This document shows positions 3,184 to 44,094 of a stretch of 64,000 bases of DNA, piece after piece (the stretch's first letter is position 1; the number at the start of each line of letters is the position of its first letter). Under the pieces are notes generated by a model. That model saw only the letters and a program-made list of their open reading frames with translations, had not been told where the DNA came from and searched no databases. The DNA is from an uncultured Clostridia bacterium (GTDB lineage: Bacteria; Bacillota; Clostridia; TANB77; CAG-465). The position numbers and the translations under genes were made by a program. Where the stretch lies: contig CALWOC010000001.1 in assembly GCA_944383015.1 (NCBI GenBank), positions 363,976-427,975 on the forward strand, written 5' to 3'.

Positions 3184-3249
3184 TTATCTACGTCTTCGTT
3201 TAGGCCAACCACTATAAAAGAACTGTTTATAACTTGCATTTTCTTTCAT
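3184..3249 (-). CDS. 21-codon mini-ORF ending in four Arg codons (MKENASYKQFFYSGWPKRRRR), between the T-box terminator and argG
   Basis: ATG at 3247-3249 on the minus strand with an AAGGAG RBS at a 7-nt spacing. The last sense codons are CGA AGA CGT AGA, then TAA at 3184-3186. It is too short for the ORF track. Confidence 0.4.
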   Translation of the reverse strand: MKENASYKQFFYSGWPKRRRR

Positions 3250-3289
3250 AATGTTTTCTCCTTTCAAATTCTATATTCAACTAGGGTAC

Positions 3290-3546
3290 AAAAAAGCACC
3301 TCTAGTTATTTCTAGAGGTGCTTTATGCACGGTACCACTCTAGTTGCCTATAAATTATATAGACCACTCATTTACCTGTAACGTAGGCTATACGTACTAT
3401 CATACTTTTACTTTAATAATTTCAGTTCTGATAGTCACTCCTGAGCTCTCTTCACATATCATCCACTGTTTGGCTCACACCACCCCAAATTCGCTTTAGC
3501 TTCATAATATACTACTCTCTCAATCAACGCTTTAATATTAACATGT
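3290..3546 (-). ncRNA. T-box riboswitch leader upstream of argG, including an intrinsic terminator at 3290-3321
   Basis: The minus-strand RNA carries a GAGAGAGUAGU Stem-I base and the T-box core AACUAGAGUGGUACCGUGC. The antiterminator is CUAGAG / UGGUACC bulge / GUGC-AUAAA-GCAC / CUCUAG. The mutually exclusive terminator is GCACCUCUAG-AAAUAA-CUAGAGGUGC followed by U6. Confidence 0.75.
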
Positions 3547-9913: not shown

Positions 9914-10046
9914 ATATCTTATCCAGAGTGACTGAGGGACAGGCCCTATGAAGTCCAGCAACCTGCAAAAATGTAAGGTGCTAATTCCTGCGGCATGACC
10001 GAAAGATAAGTTTTCTCGACTAGCTTGCCGTAGCTAGTCTTTTTTT
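9914..10046 (+). ncRNA. SAM-I (S-box) riboswitch with expression-platform terminator (10018-10046)
   Basis: UCUUAUCCAGAGUGACUGAGGGACAGGCCCUAUGAAGUCCAGCAACC...GGUGCUAAUUCCUGCGG...GAAAGAUAAG matches the S-box consensus blocks. The terminator GACTAGCTTGCCGTAGCTAGTC plus T7 follows. It is immediately upstream of metK. Confidence 0.85.
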
Positions 10047-20704: not shown

Positions 20705-20973
20705 ATAATTAAATTAAATGCAAAGAACAAGAGGAGTAAGATAAAGGTTGTTTTTAGAGAGAAAGATTCATAGGCTGAAAGATCTTTTAAATAAACATAT
20801 CTGAAGGTAGCTTGGGAGCTGGTATACTGAAGTTTTATTATGTGTAAGTATACTCCGTTACAGTCGGTAAATCTGTTAATTAAGTGCATACAAATAGCTT
20901 GTATGAATTAAGGTGGTACCGCGAATCACAGTCATTCGTCCTTAAAATATTAAGGATTAATGACTGTTTTTTT
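20705..20973 (+). ncRNA. T-box riboswitch leader of the (small ORF)-valS operon
   Basis: Near-consensus T-box AATTAAGGTGGTACCGCG at 20916-20933, an AGAGAGA Stem-I element, and the terminator CAGTCATT...AATGACTG plus T7 at 20936-20973. The candidate specifier GUA (Val) lies in GAAGGUAGC at about 20803-20811. Confidence 0.85.
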
Positions 20974-21206: not shown

Positions 21207-23822
21207 ATGGAAAATAACTTTAATTATCAAAAAAGAGAAGAAGAAATATATAAAAATTGGGAAGAAAAAGGCTATTTTAAATGTGAGATAAAAGAAGGTC
21301 AAAAACCTTTTACTATATCAATGCCTCCTCCAAATGTAACTGCTAAGCTTCATATTGGTCACGCACTAGTAAATACAATTCAAGATATTTTTATACGTTA
21401 TCATAGACTAAAGGGAGAACCTACACTTTGGATTCCTGGTACAGACCATGCAAGTATAGCAACAGAAGTAAAAGTTGTTGAAAAAATAAAAAAAGAAGGT
21501 AAAACAAAACAAGAACTTGGTAGAGAAGGATTTTTAAAAGAAGCTTGGGAATGGAAAGAAAAATATGGAGGAGAAATAACAAAACAATTAAGAAAATTAG
21601 GCTGTTCTTGTGACTGGTCTAAAGAAAGATTTACAATGGATCAAGGATGTTCAGATGCAGTTTTAGAAGTATTTGAAAGAATGTATAACAAAGGGCTAAT
21701 ATATAAAGGAAAAAGAATTGTTAACTGGTGTCCTAATTGTAAAACTCCTATATCTGATATAGAAGTAGATTACGAAGAAGTCCCTTCTTCACTTTGGTAT
21801 ATTAAATACCCTATTGAAAATAGTGACGAGTATCTAACAGTTGCTACAACTAGACCTGAAACAATGCTTGGAGACACTGCTGTTGCAGTAGCACCAGATG
21901 ATGAAAGATATACAAAATATGTAGGTAAAAGAGTTTACTTACCAATAGTAGGAAAATATATACCTATCATTGCTGATAGATATGTTGAAAAAGAATTTGG
22001 AACTGGTGTTGTTAAAATGACTCCTGCACATGATCCAAATGACTATAAAGTTGGAGAAAGGCATAACTTAGATATAATTAATATCTTAAATGATGATGCA
22101 ACTTTAAATGAAAACGCTGGCGAATATCAAGGGTTAACTACTCTACAAGCAAGAGAAAAAATAGTTGATAGACTAGATAAAGAAGGATATTTAATAAAAA
22201 TTGAACCATATACTCACAATGTTGGTAGTTGTTATAGATGTCATACAACAATTGAACCTTATATTTCTAACCAATGGTTTGTTCATATGAAAGATTTAGT
22301 TAAGCCAGCAATTGAAGCTGTAAAAAATGATGAAACAATGTTCGTACCAAAAAGATTTGAAAAAATGTATTTTAACTGGATGGAAAACATTGAAGATTGG
22401 TGTATTTCAAGACAGCTATGGTGGGGACATAGAATTCCAGCATATTATTGTGATAAATGCAATAAAATCACAGTTTCAAAAACACCAATAACAACATGTG
22501 AATGCGGTGGACATCTAACACAAGATGAAGATACTTTAGATACATGGTTTTCATCTGCACTATGGCCATTTTCTATACTAGGCTGGCCACAAAAAACTAA
22601 GGAGCTAGAATACTTCTATCCTAACTCAATGCTTGTTACTGGATATGATATTATAACTTTCTGGGTATCAAAAATGATATTTTCTGGAATTGAATATATG
22701 GGAGAAGTTCCATTTAAACATGTATTTATAAATGGACTTGTTAGAGATGCTAAAGGAAGAAAAATGTCTAAATCTTTAGGAAATGGCGTAGATCCATTAG
22801 ATGTTATTAGAGATTACGGAACAGATTCTTTAAGATTATCTTTAATTCAAAATATAACACCAGGTAATGACGTAAGATATATTCCAGAAAAAGTTGAAGC
22901 ATCTAGAAATTTTGCAAATAAATTATGGAATGCTGCAAGATTTGCAAATAACTATTTAAAAGATCTATCTATAGATAAACCAGAAAATTTAATGCCTGAA
23001 GATAAATGGATTTTAACAAAACTTTCTAAAGCTATAAAGGATGTAGAAAGTAATATAGATAAATTTGAAATTGGTGTTGCTGTACAAATAATATATGATT
23101 TTATTTGGAATGATATATGTGATTGGTACATTGAAATGATAAAACCTAGATTATATAATCCAGATAATAAGACATATGAAACAGCTATTTGGACTTTAAA
23201 TTATGTGCTTATTTCTGCAACAAAACTACTTCATCCATATATGCCATTTATTACAGAAGAAGTATATTTAAATTTAAAACATGAAAAAGACTCAATAATG
23301 CTTGAATTACTACCAGAACCAATATACAACTATGAAGAAGAAGAAAAAGTAATCGATTGTATTAATAATATGATAAGACAAATACGTAATACTAGAGCGA
23401 CTATGGATATAACAGGATCTAAAAAAACTTCAGCTCAAATAAATATAAACGACAATTCATTTAAAAATATATTTGATGACTCAGTAGAATATTTCAAAAA
23501 GTTAGCATATATTGAGAATATTGAGTTTATAACTAATATTGAAGATGCTAATCCTAAATATTCTGCACATCATGATGAAAAAATAAATGTATTCTTAAAT
23601 ATGTCTAATGCAATAGATATTAATGCTGAAATTGAAAAATTAGAAAAAGAAAAACAAACAGCTTTATCTGAATTAAAAAGAGCTAATGGTATGCTGGCAA
23701 ATGAAAAATTCGTAAGCAAAGCTCCTGAAAAATTAATAGAAGCGGAAAAAGAGAAAGTTCAAAAATATACAGAATTACTTGAAAAAATTGAAGGCAGATT
23801 AAAAGAACTAACTAATAACTAA
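21207..23822 (+). CDS. valS: valyl-tRNA synthetase
   Basis: HIGH motif (PPNVTAKLHIGHAL), KMSKS, and the C-terminal coiled-coil of ValRS. 871 aa. Confidence 0.95.
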   Translation: MENNFNYQKREEEIYKNWEEKGYFKCEIKEGQKPFTISMPPPNVTAKLHIGHALVNTIQDIFIRYHRLKGEPTLWIPGTDHASIATEVKVVEKIKKEGKTKQELGREGFLKEAWEWKEKYGGEITKQLRKLGCSCDWSKERFTMDQGCSDAVLEVFERMYNKGLIYKGKRIVNWCPNCKTPISDIEVDYEEVPSSLWYIKYPIENSDEYLTVATTRPETMLGDTAVAVAPDDERYTKYVGKRVYLPIVGKYIPIIADRYVEKEFGTGVVKMTPAHDPNDYKVGERHNLDIINILNDDATLNENAGEYQGLTTLQAREKIVDRLDKEGYLIKIEPYTHNVGSCYRCHTTIEPYISNQWFVHMKDLVKPAIEAVKNDETMFVPKRFEKMYFNWMENIEDWCISRQLWWGHRIPAYYCDKCNKITVSKTPITTCECGGHLTQDEDTLDTWFSSALWPFSILGWPQKTKELEYFYPNSMLVTGYDIITFWVSKMIFSGIEYMGEVPFKHVFINGLVRDAKGRKMSKSLGNGVDPLDVIRDYGTDSLRLSLIQNITPGNDVRYIPEKVEASRNFANKLWNAARFANNYLKDLSIDKPENLMPEDKWILTKLSKAIKDVESNIDKFEIGVAVQIIYDFIWNDICDWYIEMIKPRLYNPDNKTYETAIWTLNYVLISATKLLHPYMPFITEEVYLNLKHEKDSIMLELLPEPIYNYEEEEKVIDCINNMIRQIRNTRATMDITGSKKTSAQININDNSFKNIFDDSVEYFKKLAYIENIEFITNIEDANPKYSAHHDEKINVFLNMSNAIDINAEIEKLEKEKQTALSELKRANGMLANEKFVSKAPEKLIEAEKEKVQKYTELLEKIEGRLKELTNN

Positions 23823-39497: not shown

Positions 39498-39573
39498 TGG
39501 TCGGAGTGACAGGACCCGAACCTGCGACCTCATGGTCCCAAACCACGCGCTCTACCAACTGAGCTACACCCCG
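39498..39573 (-). tRNA. tRNA-Pro (anticodon UGG), encoded CCA
   Basis: Minus-strand CGGGGTGTAGCTCAGTTGGTAGAGCGCGTGGTTTGGGACCATGAGGTCGCAGGTTCGGGTCCTGTCACTCCGACCA is a cloverleaf with anticodon loop UUUGGGA. Confidence 0.9.
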
Positions 39574-39713: not shown

Positions 39714-40325
39714 TTATTTATAACTATTACTTCCTTGATATGGTTCTTCATATGGTAAGTATAATTCTGGATTTATAGTATCAATTGTTATTTCTTGATC
39801 CTCTACTACATACCAAATATCTGGATTCCCTCCAAAATATTCTTTTAAAGTTTTCTGTATACTATCAAAAATTGTATATACTAATGTTTTATCATCATTA
39901 ATTTCAGTTTTACCATTTCCAATATAAGAATCTGAATTAAATGGAGCAGAATTTGAGCTAAAATTAACTGTAATTCCCCCCTTTCCATTTATTATATCAA
40001 TTACTTCTATATTATATCCTATAGCTTTACCAATTTCATTAATTATTTGCTTAGCCTGTTCCATAACATCTTTATTTTTATCAATATTTACTTTATATTC
40101 TTCAAAATTATTCTCTGTACCAATATATATTGTTGTATTATCCTCATCACTGCTAGTATTTGATTCTTCATCATTTACAAAACTATTATTATCATTATTA
40201 ATATCCTCTGATTGAGTATTATTACTATTATTTATATTATCTTTTATTGACAAATATTTATATCCAAAAAATACAACAGCCACAATTAATATCATTATAA
40301 TAATGGTAATTATTACATTTTTCAA
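39714..40325 (-). CDS. N-terminally anchored secreted protein, possibly a GerMN-like domain; last gene of the His-leader operon
   Basis: A TM helix, an Asn/Asp-rich linker and an about 120-aa globular C-domain. It lies 2 nt after the upstream gene's stop. Confidence 0.5.
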   Translation of the reverse strand: MKNVIITIIIMILIVAVVFFGYKYLSIKDNINNSNNTQSEDINNDNNSFVNDEESNTSSDEDNTTIYIGTENNFEEYKVNIDKNKDVMEQAKQIINEIGKAIGYNIEVIDIINGKGGITVNFSSNSAPFNSDSYIGNGKTEINDDKTLVYTIFDSIQKTLKEYFGGNPDIWYVVEDQEITIDTINPELYLPYEEPYQGSNSYK

Positions 40326-40327
40326 GA

Positions 40328-41413
40328 CTAATCACCTTCTTTATCTATTTTATAATTAAAGATATTTTTACTAGTTGTCTGATCAGTCCATTGTTTCACA
40401 TATTTATAATATGTTTTGGTTGCTATATCATTATTTTTTCCAAATAGTATTGAATATATTAAATATTCATCCCAAATCATTAAATCCTCTATTTTAGTTC
40501 TATCTTGTATTAAAGAAAAATCATTTAAAAATTTCTTTAATCCTTCAAGCTTGTGATTTACTTCTTCGCCTTTTTTAGTTCTAATATATGAGTTGAATGG
40601 ATCAATAACATTATATGACATTAATGTTATTGTAAATACTATTCCTCCTACTAGTACAGATAATATAAAAGCAGGAATTAAATATAGTAATAAAATTTGT
40701 TTCCAATGCTCCCCAACTCCTTCAACACCGTAAAATACAAAAGCAAATACACATGTATATATAATAAGAGCTATTATAACTGCTTTTAATACCTTTAAAA
40801 CTATTTTTCCTATACTCTGATCTTTCTTTTTTAATAGTCCATGTTCTTGTGCATCTTCACATGCTTTTAAGGAAAACATATAAAAATTCATATTTGTAAT
40901 TTTTCCATCTTTTATTGAATCTAATAGCATTTTTTCATTTCTAGTTATATTATCTGGTATATTATTAACAATTATTTTTTCATTTTTCTCATCTAAATCA
41001 ATAATTTTTTTTAATTTCAAATGTAACAACGCAGCAGATATATCACAAACCGGTTCTAATTTTATATCGTCAACTCTTCTTAACTCTGTTGGTGAATATC
41101 CATATAATATATCTCTATAATATTCTTTACTCTCAGTTAAGTCTTCTGCAGATAATTTATTGCTTTTAGCTTGTTTTAACCCTATACTAATACCAATCCA
41201 TACAAGTATTGGTATAAAGTTCTTTAATATTACACTACCACCATAAAATACGAAAGCGTAAATAACATATTTTATTATATTTTCCTGTGGAACATTTTCT
41301 ATTCCCGTTAAATCTTCTGATGATATTCCAGTATAAACACTAAAACAAACACTAATAACTATATATATCCAAAAACAAAACGATAATATATTCCAAATTA
41401 AGCTTCTTCTCAT
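40328..41413 (-). CDS. polytopic membrane protein (about 6 TM, two soluble domains); middle gene of the operon
   Basis: Two hydrophobic clusters (residues about 1-80 and 205-265) separated by and followed by hydrophilic domains. Confidence 0.55.
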   Translation of the reverse strand: MRRSLIWNILSFCFWIYIVISVCFSVYTGISSEDLTGIENVPQENIIKYVIYAFVFYGGSVILKNFIPILVWIGISIGLKQAKSNKLSAEDLTESKEYYRDILYGYSPTELRRVDDIKLEPVCDISAALLHLKLKKIIDLDEKNEKIIVNNIPDNITRNEKMLLDSIKDGKITNMNFYMFSLKACEDAQEHGLLKKKDQSIGKIVLKVLKAVIIALIIYTCVFAFVFYGVEGVGEHWKQILLLYLIPAFILSVLVGGIVFTITLMSYNVIDPFNSYIRTKKGEEVNHKLEGLKKFLNDFSLIQDRTKIEDLMIWDEYLIYSILFGKNNDIATKTYYKYVKQWTDQTTSKNIFNYKIDKEGD

Positions 41414-41465
41414 ATATTACTTCACCAATTTAATGTTATCATAAACTTTAAAAATTTAAAACAAT

Positions 41466-42269
41466 TTATTTACTATTTTCATATACAAAGCCTGAAACTA
41501 TACCTTTATCTAACATATCACCTTTAATATCCAATTTGACACTTATAGTATATCCAGATGGTTGTAATATATCTACTTCTTTCTTTTCTTTTTTTAAATA
41601 TAAATATATTGATGTTGCTAAACTTCCACTACCACACGCAGTCTCATAATATAACGTATCTACAGATTTTACCCATATAACAGGATTAATTTTTAAATTT
41701 TCATCTACATTTTCAAGTAATATAACTCCAACAGCTTCTGATTTGAAATTAAATTCTTTCATTAATTTTTTTAGTTCTAGCTTTGTCTTTTCTTCATTTT
41801 CCTTTAATTTTTTTATATACTCATTTGATTCCTCTATGTCTACAACAATTAAAGTTATTCCATCTAAATTTACAATACCATACTTCTCATTTAATTCTAT
41901 TATCTCACTTATGCCTCTTTTTAATTCCATATTTGCATAAACAATATTATTCTTAGTTATTCCTCCTATTATTTTTCCATTATATCCTGATACACTTAAA
42001 CTAATTTTCCCTATATTACCATTCAAAATTTCATATATAGCGCATCTAGTTGCATTTACGCAAAACTCTCCTCCTGCCATTTCTAATATTTTTTTATCTT
42101 TATCTAAGAAACCTACTTGTTCAACATCTTTGTTTTCTTTTAAAATGTAATCATTTATTATTTTTCTTTCTTCTTTGGCATAGCTTAAACCATATACTAT
42201 TCCTGTCTTATTTCCTCCTGGATTTAATATTTTGTAATTAACATTTTCTAATTTTAACATTTTTACCAC
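41466..42269 (-). CDS. DapF-fold PLP-independent racemase/epimerase-like protein with both catalytic Cys; first gene of the operon
   Basis: EMAGGEFCVNATRCAIYEI aligns with the DapF SxxNMCGNGxRC motif. YETACGSGSLATSIY aligns with the DapF ETLACGTGATAS motif. Compare the bona fide dapF at 15419-16258. AGGTGGT RBS. Confidence 0.65.
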   Translation of the reverse strand: MVKMLKLENVNYKILNPGGNKTGIVYGLSYAKEERKIINDYILKENKDVEQVGFLDKDKKILEMAGGEFCVNATRCAIYEILNGNIGKISLSVSGYNGKIIGGITKNNIVYANMELKRGISEIIELNEKYGIVNLDGITLIVVDIEESNEYIKKLKENEEKTKLELKKLMKEFNFKSEAVGVILLENVDENLKINPVIWVKSVDTLYYETACGSGSLATSIYLYLKKEKKEVDILQPSGYTISVKLDIKGDMLDKGIVSGFVYENSK

Positions 42270-42291
42270 CTTTTTCCTTTCTAACTATAAA

Positions 42292-42356
42292 CAAAAAAGA
42301 CATATAATAAAGCTACCCGTAAGTTTTATCCCTACAAATAGCTTTATTATATGTCT
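42292..42356 (-). terminator. strong intrinsic terminator/attenuator in the leader of the DapF-like operon
   Basis: On the minus strand, an 18-bp stem AGACATATAATAAAGCTA ... TAGCTTTATTATATGTCT followed by T6. It is 23 nt upstream of the operon's first start codon. Confidence 0.6.
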
Positions 42357-42428
42357 ATCTAAAGAATATTTTTTAACTATCGTAGGTACAGCAATCTAAG
42401 CTTGTACCTACGCATAAAATAATGCTAG

Positions 42429-42482
42429 CTACAAGCTCCTACGATGATGATGTATATTTGTTAAAAATATTCTTGTATTCAT
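42429..42482 (-). CDS. 17-aa leader peptide MNTRIFLTNIHHHRRSL with three consecutive His codons
   Basis: AAGGAG RBS 7 nt before ATG 42480-42482 on the minus strand. CAT CAT CAT CGT AGG AGC TTG TAG. It is followed immediately by a segment resembling the terminator's 3' arm. Confidence 0.5.
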   Translation of the reverse strand: MNTRIFLTNIHHHRRSL

Positions 42483-42513
42483 AATAATTCTCCTTTTCTT
42501 TATAGTTTTTAAT

Positions 42514-42542
42514 ATATTAACAAAAAAAGTGTTATTTGTCAA
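42514..42542 (-). promoter_or_regulatory. sigma-A promoter for the His-leader operon (TTGACA-17-TAATAT on the minus strand)
   Basis: Minus-strand TTGACA (plus 42537-42542) and TAATAT (plus 42514-42519) with a 17-nt spacer. Confidence 0.5.
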
Positions 42543-42570: not shown

Positions 42571-44094
42571 TTATTGTTTTGTATTCTTATTTCCTAAAAT
42601 ATTTACAATCTGATTAAATATTTCTATATTATCAACAACAACTATATCTAAACTTTGTATAACACGAGTTATTGCCTGATAAAGCATATTTAATGGCGGA
42701 TACACATTATTTACCATATGTATTGCATTTAATTTTTTATCTTCACCATAATAAAAATGCTTATCAATAATTATATAAACATTTTCAAACTCCTGCCCTA
42801 TTACTTGATGAGTTACTCCAACAGAATTTTCATTGTGACAAGTAAATTCAAATCCAACCGTTCCATTTTGAGGATACAAAGTAGGTGTAAAAGGAATATA
42901 ACTTATTCCTTTTCTAGATATAATATAGTCATTTGCCTCTTTATATGTATTAAAGTATGTTATATTTATATCATCATTATTAAATATATTTCTATCATTA
43001 TATTTATTTAAATTCCACATAACTGAAATAAAATTAGCAAGTTCTCGATTGGTTCTAATCTTCTTAGTAAGTTGAAGTCTTTCTTCTCCAAACTGTTCAT
43101 TTATTAATTGAAAAATCCCATTTTCTTCCATATTTATTATTTGTTTTCTATCTCCACAAATAATAATGGCTATATTATTATCTTTAGCAAATTCAATTAT
43201 TTCATTAAATTGTTTCATTCTTATTCTTTGAACTTCATCTATTATAATTACATATATATTTTTATTTAAAGCGTACTTATAATGTTTTATTGCAAATATT
43301 CCCCATTCATACTTATCTATTAGCTTTAAATGACCATTATTTAAAAAACCACAATGGATTATATTTACTTTTAACTTATTTTTAACCAACTTTTTAGCCA
43401 TATCATAAACTAATAAAGTTTTACCAGTACCAGCATCACCTTGAATTACAAAACTCTTTTTACCATTTTCAATGTCTACTATAATCTTTTTTTCTATGTT
43501 TTCTTGTTGTTCTGTTAAAAAATATAATGAATCCATAAAAGCATCCGTTTTATTAAAAGGAGAAATTAAGTAATATGATGTTTTAAATAATTTATTTAAA
43601 TTATATTCTTTACATTTTTTATTATCTTTTAAAATATTTATAAACTCAAAAAAGCTTAATTCCCTTATGTAATTATTATCTAAAATATATAATTTACTTT
43701 CTAACTGAACATACGCTATTAAGACCATATGTTTTCCTAAGAAATTTAAATAATACTTATTTCTATTTAATTGTTTTTCTATCTTATCTATATTAGGAAT
43801 TTCTCGCTTATATTCAATGTTTAATATCATATCTTCACTTATTCTTAACAAATCGAATTCTTTCCCTATTTGTGGTATTTTGTATCCCAAATAAAAATAA
43901 TTATATATCGAATAGTCTGTATTATTATTTAAATTTTCTTCTATTTTACATACTAAGCTTTCTAGTGAATCTAATTCATTTTCTTTTATCTCAATGTTAT
44001 AATCTTTACCTATAAGACTTAAATACTCTTTGTCTATTTTACCGCCATTAGCTCTATAAATATCAACTAATGATTTTAAGTTAATAGATTTCAT
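42571..44094 (-). CDS. NERD-like N-terminal domain fused to a DUF2075/SF1-helicase-like P-loop NTPase
   Basis: Walker A IQGDAGTGKTLL, Walker B YVIIIDEVQR (DExQ), and an N-terminal ...DLLRISEDMILNIEYKRE nuclease-like D...E.K pattern. Confidence 0.6.
   Translation of the reverse strand: MKSINLKSLVDIYRANGGKIDKEYLSLIGKDYNIEIKENELDSLESLVCKIEENLNNNTDYSIYNYFYLGYKIPQIGKEFDLLRISEDMILNIEYKREIPNIDKIEKQLNRNKYYLNFLGKHMVLIAYVQLESKLYILDNNYIRELSFFEFINILKDNKKCKEYNLNKLFKTSYYLISPFNKTDAFMDSLYFLTEQQENIEKKIIVDIENGKKSFVIQGDAGTGKTLLVYDMAKKLVKNKLKVNIIHCGFLNNGHLKLIDKYEWGIFAIKHYKYALNKNIYVIIIDEVQRIRMKQFNEIIEFAKDNNIAIIICGDRKQIINMEENGIFQLINEQFGEERLQLTKKIRTNRELANFISVMWNLNKYNDRNIFNNDDINITYFNTYKEANDYIISRKGISYIPFTPTLYPQNGTVGFEFTCHNENSVGVTHQVIGQEFENVYIIIDKHFYYGEDKKLNAIHMVNNVYPPLNMLYQAITRVIQSLDIVVVDNIEIFNQIVNILGNKNTKQ

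Follow-up and report, generated by a model that had tools for sequence, protein, structure and literature searches.

A putative histidine-codon leader-peptide attenuator conserved in uncultured gut Clostridia precedes a likely histidine racemase operon and marks a histidine regulon

In the enterobacterial hisL leader (Rfam RF00514), a ribosome stalled on the His codons of a short open reading frame (ORF) favours an antiterminator (PMC9413887). In Firmicutes, His leader peptides have already been predicted: in bacilli, before hisZ and a paralogue of hisS (Naville and Gautheret 2010, PMC2965389), and also before the his operons of the B. cereus group, of Peptostreptococcaceae and Lutispora, and of Erysipelotrichales (Ashniev et al. 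2022, PMC9413887). In the same phylum, T-box(His) elements control hisS, his operons and His transporters (PMC9413887). Here we describe the leader of a three-gene operon on the minus strand of a 64,000-nucleotide (nt) stretch of DNA from an uncultured Clostridia bacterium (contig CALWOC010000001.1, positions 363,976 to 427,975). This whole stretch is called the window below, and positions refer to it unless the number of another locus (L001 and so on) is given. We consider it very likely that this leader is a ribosome-mediated transcription attenuator, which senses charged tRNA-His and controls the three genes, the first of them encoding a likely histidine racemase. The initial annotation of the window had already recognized the logic of a his attenuator before a histidine-related racemase operon; the conservation of the leader, its hisS and hisZ-hisG-hisIE targets and the clustering of the racemase now support this view. 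The leader is a new sequence family of an already known regulator type, and the type of switch is classical. What is new is the link of the switch to a racemase and to the enzyme that charges tRNA with histidine, and its added value is the regulon that it reveals.

The leader shares with hisL a short His-codon ORF, mutually exclusive hairpins, an intrinsic terminator and his biosynthesis genes among its targets. Unlike hisL, it has five competing segments and an extra closed state formed by Arg-Arg codons, and its targets include hisS, the racemase, deacylases and a transporter. The E. coli his leader contains seven His codons, and the leader described here three. No match to the leader was obtained with the His_leader covariance model RF00514, even at E <= 10. 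Leader-peptide transcription attenuation of an aminoacyl-tRNA synthetase operon is also known from the pheST leader of E. coli (pheM), which differs from the present leader in amino acid, phylum and sequence, and which has no accessory metabolic genes.

The published His leaders of Firmicutes come from the same phylum and are of the same design, combining 3-5 His codons with a terminator/antiterminator. Those of Lutispora and Terrisporobacter (PMC9413887, Additional file 6) have a similar order of parts, namely a His run, a stop codon in the strand that pairs downstream and a small hairpin, and they continue as here with ..AUAG(G/A)UACAA.., ..GUAGCUAUGAUGGG.. and the terminator. Their sequence similarity to the present family is not significant: a profile of the 55 leaders described below scored three published leaders at 1-7 bits and the best of 300 shuffles at 3 bits. 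The published leaders come from cultured species and precede his operons, hisZ or the hisS paralogue, whereas the present family comes from uncultured gut Clostridia and is also found before racemase, deacylase and transporter operons.

T-box(His) elements resemble the leader in that they respond to the charging of tRNA-His and choose between a terminator and an antiterminator, but they read uncharged tRNA directly and without an ORF, whereas the leader has one. The T-box model of Rfam (RF00230) did not match the leader at E <= 10, and in 17 related loci we found no T-box or other regulatory RNA family of Rfam. The same search detected T-boxes in the window at 20714-20946 (+), before valS (21207-23822), and at 3311-3536 (-), before argG-argH (3141-544); the absence of a T-box from the leader is therefore real. 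An S-adenosylmethionine (SAM) riboswitch is also present in the window, at 9916-10012 (+).

All elements of the leader lie on the minus strand. Transcription would start from a sigma-70-type promoter (42514..42542) composed of a -35 hexamer TTGACA (42542-42537), a 17-nt spacer with a TG, and a -10 hexamer TAATAT (42519-42514). A ribosome-binding site (RBS), AAGGAG (42490..42495), and an ORF of 17 codons and a stop codon encoding MNTRIFLTNIHHHRRSL (42429..42482) were read from the sequence, the frame of the ORF being conserved. This ORF contains three consecutive sensor codons, CAU CAU CAU (His11-13, 42444..42452), kept as HHH in relatives. The initial annotation had described the same promoter, RBS and 17-codon ORF, with CAT CAT CAT followed by CGT AGG, and we located all of them.

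Five segments with alternative partners follow the His codons. Segment A5', CGUAGG (42438..42443; CGT AGG in the DNA), consists of the Arg-Arg codons and pairs with CCUACG of segment C in a closed state formed in the absence of a ribosome. Segment A3', AGCUUGUAGCUA (42426..42437), covers the Ser-Leu-stop codons plus 3 nt and pairs with segment B. The helix A3':B is capped by a small variable hairpin, GCAU-UAUUUU-AUGC (42412..42425), which belongs to the strand previously named antiterminator. Segment B, GUAGGUACAAGCU (42399..42411), has A3' or C as partner, the latter pairing being the anti-antiterminator. Segment C, CUGUACCUACGAUAGU (42376..42391), has A5', B or the terminator 5' arm as partner, the last of these pairings being the antiterminator. 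The terminator 5' arm (T5', 42331..42356) contributes its inner part, GCUAUUUGUAGG (42342-42331), to this antiterminator. The terminator 3' arm (42323-42298) and its U-run (together 42292..42323) are supported by the fold, by a terminator scan and by compensatory changes. The hairpin had been predicted with an 18-bp stem; it is present, but its stem has 26 bp in the fold, and it is followed by 5 U residues (6 with the last U of the stem). In most relatives a U-run directly adjoins the inner terminator stem. This is not so in the window, where the entire 26-bp hairpin is the terminator. The ORF of gene 1 opens, as annotated, 23 nt after the U-run with a GTG (42269), which corresponds to the 267 residues first proposed. 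However, its likely start is the ATG at 42260, giving 264 residues, because the closest homologues have 264 residues and are called from that ATG.

The 241-nt leader folds with -79.2 kcal/mol, against -38.4 +/- 4.0 kcal/mol for shuffled sequences (z = -10.3). A terminator scan of 3.4 kb returned two sites, the leader hairpin and one other, where 0.5 were expected. The promoter pattern alone is at chance level in DNA of 26% G+C (31 matches against 30.7 expected). When the leader was compared with the whole of Rfam at E <= 10, only spurious microRNA-like matches to the terminator hairpin were obtained.

We then asked how widely the leader is conserved. The protein database contains 835 relatives of the racemase family, and 80 genome loci encoding members were scanned with a profile built from three leaders, those of the window, L001 and L007. 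L001, the closest relative (86% identity), has the same three-gene operon and a leader with one additional in-frame codon (MNKRGFLTINIHHHRRSL). L007, whose racemase is 53% identical, has the same leader (peptide MKLRIFLNELHHYRRSL) before an operon of hisS, racemase and an M20 hydrolase. The profile matched a leader in 23 of the 80 loci, invariably on the coding strand, either adjoining the 5' side of the racemase gene or preceding a hisS located upstream of it, and the leaders at these loci carry M-x3-IFLNQL-HHH-RRSL-stop. Scanning metagenome contigs for the exact pattern CATCATYATYGTAGGRGCKTGTAR yielded 38 further loci. After removal of duplicates we obtained 55 distinct leaders with 44 distinct peptides, the source being uncultured gut Clostridia. 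L066 was excluded from these counts, as its profile match is weak, its ORF is divergent (..WHYHCRRT) and it does not cleanly follow the three-state scheme described below.

The features expected of a translated leader are conserved in this set. Among the 25 leaders found without use of the His motif, HHH is present in 24 and the remaining one has HHY. The peptide has 17 codons in 44 of the 55 leaders and 14, 16, 18 or 19 in the others, all insertions and deletions being in frame, and the stop codon comes four codons past HHH in 53. A purine-rich RBS is found in all but one leader (54/55). The Leu codon preceding HHH varies synonymously at its first position (UUA in 35, CUA in 8, UUG in 2). The promoter TTGACA-17-TAnnnT is kept in 53/55 leaders, 18-45 nt 5' of the ATG of the mini-ORF, with a spacer constantly of 17 nt. 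Thus the mini-ORF, the HHH run and the terminator, for which a search in orthologous loci had been suggested, are all conserved there. The invariant His codons take part in no pairing of the predicted structures, and a coding role is therefore the best explanation of their invariance.

Leader alignments contain five conserved strands 3' of the His codons, A5', A3', B, C and the terminator 5' arm. The pairing A5':C appears in the minimum-energy fold of the window leader, and the counts of its flanking pair in alignment A2 are CG 19, UA 3 and UG 2. The pair flanking B in B:C also covaries (CG 26, UA 4, UG 4): in both A5' and B, the base preceding GUAGG shifts from C to U jointly with a change from G to A after CCUAC in C. 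For A3':B, 97.5% of the alignment cells are paired, and this helix is retained with different sequences in L030 (ACACUUGUG/CACAGGUGU) and in L047 (AGUGCUUA/UAAGCACU), the latter also retaining B:C with a different sequence. The small hairpin between A3' and B is variable in sequence among leaders, and a short hairpin recurs at this place. When the closed state and the terminator are taken together, 95% of the cells are paired and 9 pairs are changed on both sides, which none of 500 shuffles matched; in the terminator helix, compensatory changes affect both sides of 7 pairs in helices 3-4.

The two remaining pairings share segment C. The antiterminator C:T5' is pairable at 97.5% and joins the conserved strands CCUACGAUAGU (42386-42376) and GCUAUUUGUAGG. 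Its duplex energy is -11.1 kcal/mol in the window; over 54 leaders the median is -11.0 kcal/mol (z = -4.7). B:C is pairable at 95.6%, and it is the only helix that RNAalifold recovered from 38 trimmed leaders. CUAUUUGUAGG, in the terminator 5' arm, hardly varies, whereas the strand facing it in the terminator changes freely and forms G-U pairs or even mismatches with it. This is what a strand with two partners should show. Another antiterminator had been put forward by the initial annotation, in which the segment following the stop codon, UAGCUAGCAUUAUUUUAUG, pairs with the terminator 5' arm. This pairing is strong in the window alone (-10.1 kcal/mol, z = -2.9); it reaches only -6.4 kcal/mol in L001 (z = -0.4) and is at chance level in the family (median z -0.1 over 54 leaders), and we rejected it. 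It is C:T5' that the constrained folds of the window form. The additional pairings proposed at the same time, AGCUUGUA/UACAAGCU and (C)GUAGGUAC/GUACCUAC(G), do exist; they are the helices A3':B and B:C.

To follow the state of the RNA as a function of ribosome position, we folded 25 leaders with a mask that ran from the RNA 5' end to 12 nt beyond the first base of the A-site codon, each transcript ending immediately before the terminator 3' arm. CCUAC of segment C pairs with T5' in 25/25 leaders when the A site is on His1, and in 24/25 when it is on His2. When the A site is on the stop codon, the same CCUAC pairs with B in 24/25. In transcripts without a ribosome its partner is mostly A5' (16 leaders). 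The fold comparison with and without masking of the leader, as suggested at the outset, therefore gives a state that switches with ribosome position in 24-25 of the 25 leaders. We also scanned 52 leaders codon by codon with three footprints. The antiterminator fraction was 0.8-1.0 for every upstream codon, dropped within one codon from 0.9-1.0 to 0.19 and was <=0.13 within the next codon. The drop occurred after His3 with a footprint of A+9, after His2 with A+12 and after His1 with A+15. The His codons are thus the last stall positions that permit antitermination, which is the arrangement expected of regulatory codons.

From the conserved elements, their complementarity, the folding preference in each state and the genes behind the leader, we infer the following mechanism, including the translation of the ORF, the stalling and the direction of regulation. 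RNA polymerase would start at the promoter 42542-42514, and the 17-codon leader ORF would be translated. If charged His-tRNA is scarce, the ribosome would stall with His codon 1 or 2 in its A site, covering the ORF over its 5' half and CGUAGG in part or entirely. Under this stall, AGCUUGUAGCUA would pair with GUAGGUACAAGCU and hold segment B. CCUACGAUAGU would thus be left free and could pair with GCUAUUUGUAGG, in the inner terminator 5' arm, once that arm is made; with this antiterminator formed, the terminator would be blocked and the operon transcribed. When histidine is sufficient, the ribosome would reach the stop codon inside the A3' strand and melt A3':B, so that GUAGGUACA would pair with UGUACCUAC, the terminator would form and transcription would end. 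In the absence of a ribosome, a closed structure made of AAUAUUUUUAAC:GUUAAAAAAUAUU, CGUAGG:CCUACG and A3':B would sequester segment C and again allow termination. We regard this exact three-state pairing scheme as reasonably probable.

Several observations weigh against this reading. The invariance of HHH is by construction in 30 of the 55 leaders, because these were collected with a pattern requiring CATCATYAT. The helices B:C and C:T5' show no covariation within the main family, because their strands are almost invariant. The predicted states depend on the footprint assumed for the ribosome. When His3 occupies the A site, the terminator state (B:C) is already reached in 18/25 leaders, a result that depends on the footprint, and in ribosome-free transcripts the antiterminator also forms in 6/25 leaders (B being the partner of CCUAC in the other 3). 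Full-length minimum-energy folds invariably contain the terminator, so antitermination has to be kinetic and co-transcriptional, as in classical attenuators. Finally, the leader peptide is conserved well past the His run, and in L011 (leader at 3227-3452) Arg-Arg is kept by AGA AGA instead of CGU AGG, which destroys the pairing A5':C and preserves the peptide. This hints at a selection on the peptide itself that the RNA model does not explain.

The same leader was found before several kinds of histidine genes, and these are informative on the direction of regulation. In addition to the racemase, alone or with a deacylase, it precedes hisS in other contigs, either as a full-length gene or as a fusion of histidyl-tRNA synthetase (HisRS) and racemase, as well as hisZ-hisG-hisIE in L096, L109 and L125 and hisG-hisIE in L114. 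In L103 it precedes an SBP_bac_3 amino-acid-binding protein; the next ORF was read by eye as its putative permease from its hydrophobic sequence. It is also located before a GNAT acetyltransferase followed by an M20 deacylase of the ArgE/DapE family, or before the deacylase alone, and before a phosphoribosyltransferase (PRTase)-like gene and a GtrII-like membrane protein. Among the contigs examined we found no histidine-catabolic genes behind the leader. Systems that sense uncharged tRNA-His classically target biosynthesis genes, the cognate synthetase and uptake in combination (PMC9413887). The presence of one leader before hisS, hisZ-hisG-hisIE, a transporter and deacylases indicates that it marks a histidine regulon, and this target set, devoid of catabolic genes, speaks more strongly than any other evidence for specificity to histidine and for a starvation-induced switch.

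The pair formed by the GNAT protein (about 195 residues, ..VFSGPPYNEKYTEEELE..) and the M20 deacylase is conserved in L101 (4736-6342), L105, L112, L117, L121, L091 and L097. It suggests that the turnover of N-acyl-histidine is part of the regulon.

A second, unrelated type of His leader was observed in six loci of the racemase family that do not have the first one. There, an RBS-preceded ORF encoding M..(R/V)HHVWSENHPY.. lies upstream of racemase/deacylase operons (L013:4666-4752, which is the same as L004:5666-5752, L017, L022:3776-3865, L038:1591-1677, L064 and L077). Its segment 1, GUAUGGAGUG, located right after His-His, nearly duplicates the terminator 5' arm; CACCCAUAC is a pairing partner of both. 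In masked folds without a ribosome, 1:2 forms and the terminator arm is free; a ribosome on the His codons gives 2:3; and with a ribosome at the stop codon the terminator has no competitor. As modelled, this leader has the classical 1:2 / 2:3 / 3:4 hairpins, and its predicted logic is unambiguously that of a switch turned on by starvation. Short leaders ending in HHHF and a stop codon (L020, L052, L074) or of the WHHRRSA type (L047) were also seen. The convergence of two unrelated designs on His codons before one gene family strengthens the functional link.

Could the nascent peptide (IFLNQLHHHRRSL) itself be the sensor, as an arrest peptide for free histidine or another ligand, in the way TnaC responds to tryptophan? 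Its conservation past the His run and the AGA AGA codons of L011 would fit such a role. However, most of the conserved codons fall within helices that are themselves conserved (AUAUUUUUAAA with UUUAAAAAUAU; CGUAGGAGCUUGUAA with B and C), so RNA constraints explain most of the codon conservation. Moreover, residues 2-4 of the peptide vary freely, substitutions of R to C and of S to G are tolerated, and the regulon is of the biosynthetic and starvation type. We therefore consider an arrest peptide highly improbable.

In a second alternative, stalling on the His codons would cause termination and histidine sufficiency would induce the operon, which would suit an enzyme making D-histidine from surplus L-histidine. 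The competing segments (A, B, C, T5', T3') are odd in number, a stalled ribosome masking the whole of A would lead to B:C and the terminator, and the folds with His3 in the A site, mentioned above, point the same way. Yet His1 and His2 are the first hungry codons that a ribosome meets, and a stall there gives the antiterminator in 24-25 of the 25 leaders; in the codon scan the flip occurs only once the ribosome is beyond the His run. In addition, hisS, hisZ-hisG-hisIE and amino-acid uptake, which are needed in starvation, are placed under the same leader, and the second leader type has the logic of a starvation-induced switch. There is in our opinion very little chance that the logic is inverted.

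A peptide-independent RNA switch, either a riboswitch or a target of a HutP- or TRAP-like protein on (G)UAGG or UAG with an incidental mini-ORF, is just as unlikely: the leader does contain three copies of GUAGG and many of UAG, the nucleotide conservation of A, B, C and T5' exceeds the needs of the peptide, and B:C and C:T5' do not covary, but the ATG, the RBS, the frame, the in-frame indels and the synonymous Leu changes are all conserved features of a coding sequence, CAUCAUCAU is invariant though unpaired, the GUAGG/CCUAC repeats are fully accounted for by mutually exclusive pairings, the spacing of UAG is irregular when HutP and TRAP sites have a regular one, no Rfam family matches the leader, and the second leader likewise has in-frame His codons.

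The first gene that the attenuator would control, gene 1 (41466..42269), groups with HisR and CntK, the two cofactor-independent histidine racemases known. Among solved structures its best matches are HisR (E = 4e-15) and CntK (E = 5e-10), and among NCBIfam models HisR (2e-19) and CntK (9e-19). The precomputed Pfam label of its family in the database is PF26317 (CntK_N). The AlphaFold model has a predicted local distance difference test (pLDDT) score of 92.7, and the top nine Foldseek matches are all HisR or CntK (E = 1e-16 to 1e-19, template-modelling (TM) score 0.67-0.74), as compared with E 1e-11 and a TM score of about 0.56 for DapF. The initial annotation had seen a DapF-superfamily protein with both catalytic cysteines and had named the histidine racemase CntK among the enzymes of this fold; gene 1 clusters with HisR and CntK and not with DapF. 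We rejected its assignment as a DapF, as it scores 19.2 bits with DAP_epimerase (PF01678), below the cut-off of 34.7 and in a single stretch instead of the two copies expected of a DapF, and its fold is nearer to HisR/CntK than to DapF, proline racemase or PhzF. The true dapF of the window, from which it had rightly been distinguished, is located at 16267-15419 (-) and scores 199 bits with the same model.

HisR of Fusobacterium nucleatum (PDB 9CR1/9CR6), CntK of Staphylococcus aureus (PDB 6JIS) and gene 1 share a DapF-like two-domain fold, both cysteines, and the GGEFCxNA and ExxC motifs with three glutamates. Residues E50, E68, C70, N72, E209 and C212 are invariant in 21 members of the racemase family, and they align with E49, E65, C67, N69, E206 and C209 of HisR. 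For HisR, roles as catalytic cysteines and in carboxylate and imidazole binding were proposed for such residues, these roles being themselves models; the imidazole-binding glutamates proposed are E65 and E206 of HisR and E46 of CntK, the equivalent of HisR E49 (PMC11602996). Gene 1 thus keeps both catalytic cysteines, at the N-termini of the central helices, and all three proposed imidazole-binding glutamates. On the other hand, it is only about 19-26% identical to HisR and CntK and falls far below the equivalog cut-offs of NCBIfam, with 70.3 bits against 400 for the HisR model and 67.9 against 300 for CntK. Gene 1 belongs to a distinct subfamily, and from its sequence and its modelled structure we judge a histidine racemase activity to be likely. 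The genomic context also differs: CntK is encoded in a staphylopine cluster and HisR by an orphan gene (PMC11602996), whereas the family of gene 1 is found in a predicted His-starvation regulon, in the neighbourhood of hisS and fused to HisRS.

The association with HisRS is frequent. In 36 of the 80 genome loci, hisS is located at most 5 kb from the racemase homologue, and these loci span Clostridia, Oscillospiraceae, Lachnospiraceae, Bacteroidales and several Patescibacteria. In at least 8 contigs, hisS and the racemase form one uninterrupted ORF of 687-703 residues, with a complete HisRS and a C-terminal racemase domain (L012:3705-5777, L023:3708-5771, L027:547-2622, L028:1765-3876, L029:3508-5619, and also L099, L122 and L124). 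Scored with the hisS equivalog model, a fusion ORF reaches 343 bits, above the cut-off of 287; its racemase domain covers residues 433-686. In L007, hisS and a gene joining the anticodon domain to the racemase seemed at first sight to represent a partial fusion. We rejected this interpretation, as other genomes have either intact fusions of 687-703 residues or separate genes, and L007 is therefore probably a frameshifted fusion.

According to the authors of the HisR structure, the physiological role of HisR-type enzymes is unclear (PMC11602996). Among the papers searched, none named both 'histidyl-tRNA synthetase' and 'histidine racemase'. Taken together, the predicted starvation control and the fusion with HisRS point to a supply of L-histidine from D-histidine. 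We tentatively propose, as a possibility that we still hold to be somewhat doubtful, that HisR/CntK-like racemases are histidine-salvage enzymes of a His-starvation regulon, converting D-histidine into L-histidine for tRNA charging. On a shortage of L-histidine, HisRS, uptake systems, deacylases and the racemase would be induced together. The D-histidine could be free, or could be released by the ArgE/DapE-type deacylase. In the species with a fusion, the substrate might be handed over directly within the single HisRS-racemase protein.

Downstream of the racemase gene in the window, gene 2 (40328..41413, minus strand) encodes a polytopic membrane protein with a DUF2207_C domain (PF20990, 76.5 bits), and gene 3 (39714..40325, minus strand) a protein of 203 residues with an N-terminal membrane anchor and a low-complexity linker, for which no family was matched. 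The initial annotation had described a polytopic membrane protein and an anchored protein, but the label 'GerMN-like' given to gene 3 was dropped: no Pfam match to GerMN was obtained at E <= 0.1, and NCBIfam gave no support either. The combination of genes 2 and 3 with the racemase is confined to this lineage (the close relatives L001-L003). If the salvage proposal is right, the racemase, the DUF2207_C membrane protein and the anchored extracellular protein of the window could form a module for uptake or capture of the D-form. A DUF2207_C membrane protein of 413 residues is also encoded in L114 (7500-8741, minus strand), where its gene comes third, following hisG-hisIE, downstream of the same leader. 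DUF2207_C is thus tied to the histidine regulon a second time, independently.

Directly 3' of the operon, a tRNA-Pro(UGG) gene (39498-39573, minus strand) has its own TG-extended promoter (39613-39585) and is followed by a terminator (39492-39476); the same tRNA comes after the operon in L001 (8690-8762). Just 5' of the leader, the gene at 42571-44094 (minus strand) encodes a P-loop protein of 507 residues, which contains AAA_30 and Schlafen-group-3-helicase-like domains. This gene has no relation to the operon and is not at that position in L001.

Nothing in the switch as such goes beyond textbook biology, and His leaders resembling it had been predicted before in other Firmicutes. The organism described here nevertheless offers a clean example of sensor replacement, with T-boxes before Val and Arg genes but a leader peptide where histidine is concerned. 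Moreover, the 24-nt core of the leader is a tag for histidine-responsive genes in uncultured, very AT-rich gut Clostridia. This tag already delimits a regulon composed of hisS, hisZG-IE, an ABC transporter, the GNAT and ArgE/DapE-type deacylase pair, the racemase and the DUF2207_C protein. The finding of a HisR/CntK-like racemase under predicted histidine-starvation control, together with its adjacency or fusion to hisS, provides a testable idea of D-histidine salvage. If true, this would be the first physiological role for HisR-type enzymes and the first functional context for a DUF2207_C protein.

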